Of a stretch of 64,000 nucleotides of DNA, positions 2,821-53,087 are shown in pieces (within the stretch, counting starts at the first letter, position 1; each line of letters starts with the position of its first letter). This DNA comes from Octopus vulgaris (taxonomy: Eukaryota): NCBI GenBank assembly GCA_951406725.2, contig OX597821.1:60574001-60638000 (forward strand). Reading direction: 5' to 3'. A program made the translations under genes and the position numbers. Under the pieces are notes generated by a model. It did no database searches, had not been told where the DNA came from, and saw only the letters and a program-made list of their open reading frames with translations.

Positions 2821-3027
2821 ATCGTTGCAAAAATATTCCAGACAACACAGAGCTCGCTGTGCCTGGCAAATGTAGACAATACTTGAGATGTTACAACGGA
2901 AAAACAAAAACAGAGTGTTGTCGGTGGGGTTATTCTTTTAAACCTGGGAGAGGATGTCAACGTGATTATCGGTGTAAAGAAAAGTGTGATTCACAATATC
3001 CAACGCCAAACCCATACAATCCCCAAG
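2821..3027 (+). CDS. Exon M1: 8-Cys chitin-binding-like (ChtBD2-related) module of Pif/LamG3-like gene (divergent copy)
   Basis: ttttcatag|AT...CAAG|gtatgt, 207 nt, phase 1-1; [56 protein letters not shown]; Cys spacing C-x14-C-x5-C-x8-CC-x11-C-x5-C-x3-C. Confidence 0.85.
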
Positions 3028-3154
3028 GTATGTAACATCCTTATAACACACATACACACACTCACACACACACACACACACACACACACACACACACACA
3101 CACACACACACACACACACACACACACACACACACACACACACACACACACACA

Positions 3155-4115
3155 CAAGCGCTTTTGATGCAGTAAAAATTAATAATTATATAAAAAATCT
3201 GAATAAAAATTTAAATGACACAAACTTTTTGGAAGTTTTACATATTGTCCTAAGCGCTTACGCTGCTGATAGCTTTTCAAGCCAATGGTTTTTTTTGGGT
3301 AAACAGTTTAGAGGATTTTTTGTTTTTAGAAGAGTTGCAGACTATTTCCACTTTATTTTCGGATTTAGAATTTTTATAAAGTATTCTTCTTTTAATTTTC
3401 GAAGTTAGTAAATTTCTCTATTCTAACAAAAAAGGAAATTGTTTGAATTTTGCATTTGCTCAAATATCCAGATGTTCATTACATAGAACATTTCTAAGAG
3501 ATGAATCTCTAATTTGCTGTTTAAGGATCCTAACCCGATATATCAGTTTTGATCCTGTTTGGCTGATATAATTTTCACTGTATTTTGGGCATGTGATGTA
3601 GCAAATGACAAATTTTGTTTTGAAGCTCACATTCACATTCCTTCCCATTCTTGAATATTTTAGCTGTTCCTTATCCAATTATTTTGCAAGTCCCACAACA
3701 GCGATCTCCGCATTTTGATACCTTCACTGTCTCCTCTCCTAATGTAAGGCCTTTAAGTTTTGATGCTTGTCTTCAGCAATTGATAAATTGTAATTCTTTA
3801 ATTATTTTCTTGAGATTTGATGATTGGTGTAGAATTGGAAGGTATAATGTGGCCAAATTCAAGATGTTATGTTTTTTAGGAGTAACCTCATTGAGAAGAT
3901 TTCTCCGTAAGATAGAGATTGGAATACCTTCTGCTCTGGTTATGTCATGATTTACTAAGTTTTCCGAGTAATTTTTTCCTGAAAGAATATATTTAACCCT
4001 ACCAGTTGTTTCTCTCGTCTATTCGTATCTTGACTATCGAAGACATTCGTCTTGCCATATTGAATGGGGCGCTTCTTTTAATACGAGAACAATGGCAAGA
4101 TCTAAGAATCTAAGT
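3155..4115 (-). mobile_element. Penelope-like fragment with GIY-YIG endonuclease remnant
   Basis: VICYITCPKYSENYISQTG...RVR..KQQIRD...EHLD resembles PLE GIY-YIG; approximate limits. Confidence 0.65.
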
Positions 4116-6164
4116 ATTAGTGTGTGTCGGTGTCCTTGCAGTGCATATCGATTGTAACGGTCTCATTTTTCCTAATCACTAGACACACATACGCACACAC
4201 ACATACACACACACATATATATATATATAAAAATACATATTTATACATGTAAATTTGTATTATTACATATATATACACACACATATAGATATAGATATAT
4301 ATACATATATATACATACACACATGTATATATATATATATATATATATATATATCAGGAAAATAGGACAAGGTAAAAAAGGCTAAAATAATTTTATCATC
4401 TTAGTACAGGTTTCAGACTTTGCGACTTTTTCAGCTTAGAGTAAAGTATGAAAAACAATTAAATAGTGGAAAAATTAAATGAAATGTTTTTTAAAATATA
4501 TCCATAGTTTTCAAAAAGGTTGGACATTTTCCTTTTTCTGTCTCGCTGTCTTTTACTTTTGTGAAGGCTCGGTTGGAAGGTAGTAGTAGTATTAGTAGTG
4601 TATATATATATATATATATATGTATATGTATGTGGCTGTGTGGTAAGAAGCTTCCTTCTCAACCATAGGCTTCCGGTTTTTGTCCCACTAGGTGACACCT
4701 TGGAAAGTGTCTTCTATTATAGCCTCGGGCCGACTCCAAAAATGTGTTTACAATCGTCCACACATTTCAAGACAAACAAAGAACGTCTATTTTTATTGGC
4801 ATTTGAAGTTAGAAGAATTATTGATTTGTTAAGATCTTCCAAGTTTGAAAATCTTAACGAATCTCCTTCCAAGCCGGGACCAGTGGAGTTTGCTGCTAGG
4901 CGTTTGTTTACCTTCATTCACTCCAAAAGTAATTTCACACACACACACACACACACACACACACACACACACACACACACACACACACATACACACAAGT
5001 ATATGTATGTGTGTGTATGTGTGTGTATGTGTGCATGTGTGTGCGTTGTGTGTGTGTGGGTCTTCATGTTTTTTTTAATTTTTGAGTGCGTACGTGTGTA
5101 CATATATATCTTTTATACAAGCAAATCTAATTGTCTTTTGGATATACACTTTTAAATATACTTCATTAATGACTTTCTTACTGGTAATGACTTCCTAGAA
5201 TATTATACAAATGTAATTCGTATTCCCAAATAAATTGCACTTCATTGAGAGTTCGATGAAGCTGTAGGATGTTATTCAGGCACTCAGCTATGAGTCTCTC
5301 TCTCTTTTACTCTTTACTCTTTTACTCTTTACTCTTTTACTCTTTACTCTTTTACTCTTTACTCTTTTACTCGTTTCAGTCATTTGACTGCGGCCATGCT
5401 GGAGCACCGTCTACTGCATCTTATAGAATAAACAGCTGTAATACAATGGCGTTCATAACATAGCAGTCGTTTTCCTGTGTCATTTATTTTTCTTGTTACC
5501 CCTCTATACTCATCTCACACTTTGTTTTGAAATATACGCGTATTGAGTTCTACACCAGGTTATTAGTCTCGCTATGTCTAAGCGAAAGATATGTATGCAT
5601 GTATGTATGCATGTATGTATGCATGTATATATGTATGTATGCATGAGTGTATGTATGTATGTATATATGTATGCATGTATGCATGTATGTGTGTATGTCT
5701 ATATGTACGTATGTATGCATGTATGCATGTATGTATGCATGTCTGTTTGTCTGTCTGTCTGTCTGTCTGTTTGTCTGTCTGTTTGTCTGTCTGTCTGTAT
5801 GTCTGTCTGTATGTAATAATATGAGAGGTTTTGGTATTCAGAAGGCCCAAAAGGAAGATAAGACTATGTAAGTGCTACGGAAGGACATGTCTTCTAAATA
5901 TTAGATATCCACATTATAATAATTGATAAATAATTTGGATATATAATTTCAGATTTAAATAAATTTTAACGATTATAGGGGTATCTATTTACTTCTGCCA
6001 TGTCTGTGTATATCCACACACACACACATGTATGGATGTAAGGGTGTAAATGTCTGTACCTCTGAGTGTTTGTATTTGTGTGAGTGAATATATGTGGTTT
6101 TGTAACAATTTCCAATCTATATAGTACACCATGAATCATACCCAATTTATTTTATTTTGTATAG

Positions 6165-51289: not shown

Positions 51290-51980
51290 TGGTGTGGCTG
51301 TCTGGTAAGAAGCTTGATCCCCAACCGCATGGTTCCGTTTTCAGTACCAATGTGTTGAACGTTGGGCAAGTGTCTTTTATTATGGCCTCGGACTGACCAA
51401 AACCTTGTGAGTGGATTTGGTGGACGGAAACTAAAAGAAGCCTGTAGATTATATATATATATATATATATATATATATATATTTATATATATATAAATAT
51501 ATAAAACATTACGTTATATAATTAGGGTTCAGTAAAAAAAATTACTTTACCACACACCGAACTTGTGTGGTAAAGTAAATTTTTTTTACTGAACCCTAAT
51601 TATATAACGTAATGTTTTAAATATACCGCAAATGGTCTTTTTACATACTGAACACTACTGGGTAAAATTATTAATTAATATTTAATTAATTTTACCCTTT
51701 TATTATTATATAATATATATATATATATGTATGTATGTAAGTATGTATTTATGTATGTATGTATCTGTGTGTCTGTCTTTGTCCCTCCATCACTGTTTGA
51801 CAACCGGTGTTGGTGTGTTTTCGTCCCCGTAACTTAGTAGTTCGGCAAAACAGACCGATATAATAAGTACTAGACTTAAGAAAAATAAGTCGTGGGATCA
51901 ATTTGCTCGACTAACACCCTTCAAGGCGGTGCTCCAGCATGACCGCAGTAAAACGACTGAAACGGGTAAAAGAATGAAAG
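51290..51980 (+). mobile_element. tRNA-derived SINE with a fold-back insert in its internal (TA)n
   Basis: Family head and tail present, interrupted at 51500-51710. Confidence 0.7.
51502..51619. repeat. Inverted repeat, ~55-bp arms
   Basis: 51502-51556 versus 51564-51619. Confidence 0.9.
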
Positions 51981-53039
51981 AATCTATCTATCTACCTATC
52001 TATCTATCTATCTATCTATCTATCTATCTATCTATCTATCTATCTATCTATCTATTTATCTCATTCTCTTTTATTTACTGTCTGTTCGTTCGTCTGTCTG
52101 TTTGTGTATGTATGTTCACATACACATGCACACACACACACACACACACACACACACACACACACACACACACACACACATGCTGACGCACACAAAATAT
52201 ATATTATATAATAGAAACAATTCACAAAGTGTAGAACAAATCACGAATGGATCACGAACTTTTCCAGAAGCTCTCTTCGTTGACGTAAGCTGAAATACTT
52301 ATAACGCTAGTTGCGTCGAATAGAAGAAAAGTTTATCTCCTGACATGCAGAATATCTGAAGTGGTTTCGTTCTCTATATAAAATATTTTCATTTCATATA
52401 CATCACTTCCATTACTGATGCCATTCAAACAAAGATGGAGGTCACAATGTATTTACCCGCTTTGTTTTTTTGTCATGACAAAATAATATATGAAGATATT
52501 GACTGGTATATTCATTCTTAATACGTTTCGGCAGATTCAAACCTAAATATACTACTCACTCATGTATTTCCTCATTTAAGATGAATATGTATTTATTAGT
52601 GTAAGGAGACTATAGGACACTCGGTGTTTCGACATCGATGTATCTCCTCAGCCAAAGGCGCCTCGAACTAATGAATCTAACAAGATTTCTTGGCTCTTGT
52701 TTATAAATTCAGTAAAAATATCATTAACGTGAATATGTTAATCGCTGTAATTTATAAAGAATTCTGCTCAAAACGTTCCAATTTTTTCCCTAAGGCAAAC
52801 TTTTTTTTTTTTATCATACTTTGTGAACATTTTGTACTTAGTGTTTACCGGCATAGACTGCCACAGGTTTTTAGGATTCTACGGCGCAGGCACACAGACC
52901 ACACACATACACACACACATTAATACTGACACACACACAGGCACGTGAACACGCCTACATTCAATATCTCAGTATTTTTCGACGTAGTTATACACTCCAG
53001 TATGTTACTGTTTTATAATATTTTTTTTCATCTTTGCAG

Positions 53040-53087
53040 CTCTATATCTACAAGTGTCTTCCGAGTGATCGTCGTCACCCACAATAA
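53040..53087 (+). CDS. Terminal coding exon: end of LamG-like domain and stop
   Basis: Strong polypyrimidine acceptor ttttttttcatctttgcag| then LYIYKCLPSDRRHPQ*; completes the usual last LamG strand and closing Cys. Confidence 0.7.
   Translation, partial: LYIYKCLPSDRRHPQ

Follow-up and report, generated by a model that had tools for sequence, protein, structure and literature searches.

A 64,000-nt window of the Octopus vulgaris genome (assembly GCA_951406725.2, contig OX597821.1, positions 60,574,001 to 60,638,000) contains a large gene of the Pif/LamG3 type, in which a tandem array of single-exon, eight-cysteine modules precedes a C-terminal LamG/ConA-like domain. A six-frame pattern scan finds 15 copies of the motif C-x14-C-x5-C-x8-CC-x11-C-x5-C-x3-C, all on the forward strand between 2826 and 40490, and the cysteines are invariant at all eight positions. 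Each module exon begins 5 nt upstream of the first cysteine, directly after an AG acceptor, and ends in phase 1. All are phase 1-1 with lengths that are multiples of three: 207 nt in M1 to M11 (n = 11), 195 nt in M12, 186 nt in M13, 180 nt in M14 and 198 nt in M15. The donor is GT in 14 of the 15 and GC in M11. Introns range from 342 to 4,502 nt, and the assembly has no N gaps here.

The exons are M1 (2821..3027), M2 (6165..6371), M3 (7016..7222), M4 (8458..8664), M5 (12188..12394), M6 (14253..14459), M7 (17896..18102), M8 (21745..21951), M9 (22294..22500), M10 (23328..23534), M11 (25649..25855), M12 (30358..30552), M13 (34487..34672), M14 (38170..38349) and M15 (40324..40521). M2 to M10 and M12 form a young, near-identical class; M11 is of an older type, and M13 and M14 are diverged. 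The LamG/ConA-like domain is encoded by four further forward-strand exons at 42399..42751 (phase 1 to 0), 47225..47315, 48952..49028 (in frame) and 53040..53087, the last with the stop codon; a candidate poly(A) signal lies at 53319. M1 to M15 and the four LamG exons join into one open frame of 1,200 amino acids that ends with the stop at 53087. The exon array, its cysteine spacing and its in-frame continuation to this stop were all part of the original prediction, which was made from the letters of the window, and all were recovered.

The search region was extended to 264 kb, comprising the window, 150 kb upstream and 50 kb downstream. A module profile run over its six frames gives the 15 exons E-values of 1e-29 to 1e-43, against a best background value of 0.03, so the array is far beyond chance. 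The same search also recovers M0, a further complete module, and a pair of 3' half-modules, each fused to a (TA)n tract. Searched across the genome, M14 gives at least 17 matches among 22 candidates (a lower bound), namely the 16 modules of this gene and one in a Pif paralogue. The half-modules are both on the forward strand: one at 7346..7430 has an intact donor and lacks a polypyrimidine acceptor, and the other, at 8795..8879, is included in the public model P0003. Both begin right after the (TA)n microsatellites, which suggests microsatellite-mediated breakpoints in the array.

Three other local features are recorded here. The GC donor of M11 (25855/25856) possibly makes this a weak or skipped exon in O. 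vulgaris; the O. bimaculoides M11 orthologue is present in gene models. The intron after M7 holds a near-perfect palindrome of about 450 bp (18314-18764; spacer 0, arms 97%), possibly a fold-back element or a duplication scar. A 69-bp perfect inverted repeat pair lies at 46392-46628, in the intron before LamG exon 2.

The 5' end lies outside the window. M0, the 16th module, is at L016:7790-7981, about 2.2 kb before the window start. A micro-exon of 30-33 nt at about L016:5782-5814 joins M0 in frame and is included in the public model. Lying 12.9 kb before the window, a hydrophobic exon (L017:7060-7126) has an ATG, 22 codons, an acceptor and a GT donor, and can be joined in frame through the micro-exon and M0 to the array. 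It is a likely signal-peptide exon and the putative first coding exon. Another hydrophobic exon with an ATG, at about L018 5194-5275 (window -24806), ends in a phase-1 GTAAGT donor and is a possible alternative first coding exon. The N-terminus of P0003, which lacks a signal peptide and is pieced together from short upstream exons, is likely mis-predicted and was set aside. Nothing significant to VWA, CB1 or CB3 was found in the 264 kb by tblastn and a VWA profile (best E 0.09). The original prediction had raised both a signal peptide and a VWA domain for the unseen 5' end; the former now has a candidate exon, and the latter was not detected. A model that includes all exons has 1,298 amino acids, a mass of 150 kDa, an isoelectric point (pI) of 9.2, 10.5% Cys and 19% Arg+Lys. 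Net charge is +5 to +8 in 14 of the 16 modules, and M14 is the sole neutral one.

The LamG domain is compact, with 188 amino acids, no insert, a pI of 10.3 and a net charge of +26. The acidic CaCO3-binding insert or C-terminal product of Pif, PIF-A and BMSP is absent from it. Pfam matches to the domain are weak (Laminin_G_2, E 0.03, in the orthologue; exon 1 alone has no LamG match), and it is also homologous to Laminin_G_3-bearing Pif proteins. The O. sinensis orthologue P0151 served as a proxy for the fold, its LamG domain being identical to that of the O. vulgaris gene at 186 of 188 positions. Its AlphaFold2 model, built from a 72-row alignment, has a mean predicted local distance difference test (pLDDT) score of 91, with beta-strand modules and a beta-rich C-terminal domain. 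Residues 127-315 match chains of the ConA/LamG fold with Z-scores of up to 18.6 (root-mean-square deviation 2.7 over 182 aligned residues), and laminin, neurexin, agrin and pentraxin domains with Z-scores of 12-14. The C-terminal domain is thus predicted to be a ConA/LamG sandwich, as anticipated, and the shared fold implies no function. The top fold matches, whose identity is 10-18% in the chains listed, are N-terminal halves of clostridial neurotoxin binding domains. An arabinanase domain scores equally, and they are therefore read only as ConA/LamG jelly-rolls; no link to toxins is claimed. A single-sequence fold of P0001 (pLDDT 39) was discarded in favor of the alignment-based model.

The gene has relatives in the same genome. 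An intact Pif paralogue with the architecture VWA-CB1-CB2-CB3-LamG lies on the same contig (C8:48722571-48738861, that is 48.72-48.74 Mb; L042-L043). Its CB2 has the same eight-cysteine frame and acceptor position as the array modules, and the exon breaks of its LamG coincide with those of the array gene. Because of these matches, the gene is best described from its sequence as a Pif/LamG3 paralogue without VWA, CB1 and CB3 that has amplified only the CB2 exon, which is in keeping with the Pif/LamG3 architecture first proposed. A quick LamG tree of 103 rows, with four redundant rows omitted, puts the gene, as a long branch, together with the intact paralogue and its Argonauta orthologue (Shimodaira-Hasegawa approximate likelihood ratio test, SH-aLRT, 93; unstarred), a grouping treated as a lead. 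About 220 kb beyond the window end (C8:60857894-60885908, L054-L057) lies a third member of the Pif family, made up of a signal peptide, one CB3-type domain and LamG. It is the orthologue of P0023 (260 amino acids) and complements the array gene, in which CB2 alone was kept. At C17:62704915-62705214 (L039) there is a fourth LamG exon, which is more distant.

The modules differ in their degree of divergence. Any two of the ten young copies are 1-10 nt apart over 162 and 0-4 amino acids apart over 54. M1 and M11 are 11-15 amino acids from these ten, and M0, M13, M14 and M15 are 20-36 amino acids from other modules. Intron flanks were duplicated along with the module exons, and some exon-plus-flank blocks are 97-98.5% identical. 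The variant codons of the young copies comprise 11 synonymous and 6 non-synonymous ones, giving a ratio of non-synonymous to synonymous polymorphism (pN/pS) of about 0.13 (binomial P 5e-5), and none of these copies is broken. The ten near-identical copies are under purifying selection, that is, they are maintained as coding sequence. All 11 modules from M2 to M12 have Val at a site where all four matching O. bimaculoides modules, including the M11 orthologue, have Glu; this one diagnostic site suggests that the array is homogenized within species.

Current annotations know the gene by name (PIF-like) and truncate its array; its anatomy was not known. The O. vulgaris entry CAI9726915.1 repeats window modules (seven full, one half-module and a truncated M15) and has a broken LamG that omits exon 1. 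The O. sinensis orthologue XP_036361074.1 has two modules, the first truncated. The O. bimaculoides models XP_014774956.1, XP_014789785.1 and A0A0L8H6Y3 have two, three and two modules and a LamG 83% identical to that of O. vulgaris; at least five modules, several of the young type, occur among the models of that species, and M11 is 85% identical to one of them. In Argonauta hians a partial protein carries two modules in tandem, the first of them M0-like (67%). The original prediction had regarded the array as specific to its lineage. On these sequence comparisons the multi-module state is at least octopod-wide, so specificity at the level of the species is not supported.

Among 24 listed sequencing runs, 11 contain LamG exon 1 (one recorded as RNA, six guessed to be RNA), and 13 contain next to none of the region's words, which hints at restricted expression but proves nothing. 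RNA contigs from four runs were placed on 34001-43000; joints upstream of M12 and those between LamG exons 2, 3 and 4 fall outside this interval. An exact GT..AG joint from 40521 to 42399, linking M15 to LamG exon 1, is present in three of the four runs, which come from three studies. The last module and LamG are thus spliced together, in line with the original prediction. The fourth, X6, covers only 170 letters of LamG exon 1. In X1 a loose end beyond 42751 fits the start of LamG exon 2 at 47225. Contig depths are not taken as expression levels, except for the comparison in X1 of exon (about 2,500) with unique intron (8-27). The X1 contig that contains M15 (depth 2,458; LamG exon 1, 2,506) opens with the end of M12, identified by its unique shorter linker, and in X3 an overhang of equal length, 40 letters, enters M15. 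Since in X1 the M13 contig has a depth of 243 and M14 one of about 27-84, the main form in that run skips M13 and M14. One contig breaks 43 letters inside M12, exactly at a 30-mer common to M10 and the RNA allele of M12, and an M10-type exon therefore belongs to the same RNA graph, which is indirect evidence of its expression.

The original prediction placed all modules in one chain. A single chain of 15-16 modules is not supported: in two runs the contig leads into M15 from an M12-type end, with M13 and M14 left out, and public models use differing subsets. The array may instead be a repertoire of cassettes from which each mature protein takes few modules, with one or none of M13, M14 and M15 before LamG. 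This proposal concerns length, would fit either of the ligands considered below, and is possible although on the whole doubtful. It draws on the joining of M12-type ends to M15 in X1 and X3, on the symmetry of every module exon, and on the ends of the public models, which put M13, M15 or neither before LamG (young-M13-LamG in P0151 and P0002, M13 also standing directly before LamG in O. bimaculoides; young-LamG in P0001; M12-M15 in P0003). Choice among ten copies that are 0-4 amino acids apart would yield little diversity, however, and purifying selection on them fits repetition for avidity. The 30-mer break also places M12 and an M10-type exon together in one RNA, and the short public models may stem from fragmented assemblies or collapsed repeats.

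The similarity of the modules to chitin-binding domains is supported by Pfam. All six modules tested match CBM_14 (PF01607), with E-values from 9e-6 (M9) to 1e-3 (7e-4 for M1); four of them, M9 included, are above the curated cut-off. In the AlphaFold2 model of P0151, whose fold-search lists are filled by the LamG domain, modules are predicted with confidence as beta-strand structures. The ESM Atlas returns CBM_14 clusters only, at 0.87, which is a lead only, and a protein search with M0, itself a weak search, gave no match.

These features suggest a secreted, cationic, multivalent scaffold of a chitin matrix in an unmineralized structure, with its valency set by exon skipping and chitin as the predicted ligand. 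This is, by a small measure, the probable reading. Chitin as the ligand was also the original prediction; it and the sites named there (beak, radula, sucker cuticle, stylet or gut lining) are candidates, not supported as stated. The protein would enter the secretory pathway by way of the exon 12.9 kb upstream. The array would have grown as unequal crossing-over multiplied a symmetric phase 1-1 exon together with its intron flanks, and it would have been homogenized within species. Each disulfide-locked module may bind N-acetylglucosamine polymers weakly, and short Pro/His linkers would permit many to bind at once, so that the scaffold is predicted to cross-link the chitin fibrils of an unmineralized cuticle through avidity. 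The basic LamG domain could dock to acidic matrix partners, and exon skipping would set both the valency and the module that adjoins LamG.

Several observations weigh against this scaffold. Transcripts carrying more than a few modules were not observed among the contigs on 34001-43000, and an in-frame join of the candidate signal-peptide exon to the micro-exon requires the upstream one of two adjacent acceptors. In CHIT1 the conserved chitin-binding Trp465 is reported to sit in the C-terminal part of CBM_14 (PMC4844120). The alignments of the modules to CBM_14 stop at profile position 37-42 of 53, and the unaligned C-terminal part is the region that holds this residue. Two residues past the cysteine that we take to match the Trp465 site stands Arg, or Pro in M0. 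Among PDB sequences the modules match Aplysia EHEP best (profile E 3e-4); this protein has three peritrophin-A domains and reportedly does not bind chitin (10.1101/2023.06.04.543649).

A second proposal, which we consider unlikely, is that the same gene, likewise secreted, has a ligand other than chitin. The cationic modules of this basic protein (pI 9.2, 19% Arg+Lys) would bind polyanions or small ligands, such as sulfated mucus glycans, microbial surfaces, polyphenols or heme, in skin mucus, gland secretion, egg coat or gut, much as EHEP, AeIMUC1 and tachycitin-type proteins do. The poorly matched C-terminal part of CBM_14 favors it, as do EHEP, the top PDB match, and Der p 23, both of which are reported to share the fold and not to bind chitin, and AeIMUC1, which binds heme (10.1101/2023.06.04.543649). 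The absent Trp is nevertheless weak evidence against chitin, because the chitin-binding residues are reported to vary between CBM14 members (10.1101/2023.06.04.543649). A positive face is also described in the CHIT1 module (PMC4844120), and the modules descend from a chitin-binding-type exon of Pif, a family in which Pif97 is a reported chitin binder (10.1101/2021.07.10.451900). That assembly error (haplotype or repeat duplication) has inflated a true gene of about 6-8 modules is very improbable: the 97-98.5% identity of some blocks fits it, but all young core pairs differ, mostly at synonymous sites, the introns are of unequal length without N gaps, and several young-type copies exist in O. 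bimaculoides too.

A bolder reading, which we put forward only as a speculation, is that octopods have made a shell-matrix Pif variable in valency. A 16-fold homogenized exon, combinatorial splicing and a switchable module next to LamG would tune the cross-linking of soft chitinous structures, for which sucker cuticle, beak margin and egg attachment are candidates. If true, this would be a direct molecular trace of the fate of a shell gene after shell loss. Shell-less octopuses are reported to retain Pif/LamG3 genes with supposed new functions, none of them named (PMC9635652). The locus offers a concrete case of such a remodeled Pif: it lacks three domains, has one exon amplified that is under purifying selection, and has its charge reversed. 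It also supplies a candidate multivalent biomaterial protein that can be tested, and it illustrates the evolution of an exon array cleanly.

Multi-module proteins of this general kind are found elsewhere. Multi-peritrophin-A proteins, such as insect peritrophins, Aplysia EHEP and the squid beak chitin-binding protein 7BWE, likewise have tandem CBM14-fold modules with short Pro/Thr linkers, but those modules mostly have six cysteines and lack the CC motif. The homology matches include tandem CBM14 proteins with 8-17 modules, so multivalency itself is not new; none of the matches with at least eight modules is among the rows of the LamG tree, except the gene's own model. No description of the 16-module octopus form was found in literature searched by keyword and by six accessions, a scope that excludes figures, subscription journals and some supplements. 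The public models of the locus and its orthologues in three Octopus species have 2-7 full modules and no signal peptide, unlike the 16-module model.

Pif is described as VWA with 1-3 chitin-binding (CB) domains, LamG3 as CB and LG without VWA, and BMSP as having a tandem expansion of VWA and CB; LamG3 is reported in octopods (PMC9635652, PMC11291548, PMC13076209, PMC10543319, 10.1101/2021.07.10.451900). The argonaut LamG3, with a signal peptide, three ChtBD2 and LamG, is reported to be highly expressed in arm and mantle epithelium (10.1101/2021.07.10.451900). The module count of the present gene exceeds the 1-3 chitin-binding domains of Pif and the argonaut LamG3, and had rightly been called unusual. 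With the LamG3/Pif-like proteins (argonaut eggcase LamG3 and oyster Pif-e/f) it shares CB-type modules, a C-terminal LamG/ConA domain and the lack of VWA, and it has a putative signal peptide. It differs in its 16 CB2-only modules and the absence of CB1 and CB3, where the argonaut protein has three ChtBD2. The likeness to LamG3 is one of architecture. The published LamG3 references Aargo013232 and Ocbimv22010162m could not be paired with the rows compared, and in the quick tree the LamG domain has a weak affinity to the octopod Pif that bears VWA (SH-aLRT 93). With the ancestral Pif/PIF-A (A. hians GAB1600178.1; O. bimaculoides 'protein PIF isoform X1') the gene shares the cysteine frame and exon boundaries of CB2 and 35-38% identity in LamG. 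PIF-A has VWA, CB1 and CB3 and is acidic, whereas the octopus gene lacks these domains, is strongly basic and has amplified CB2.

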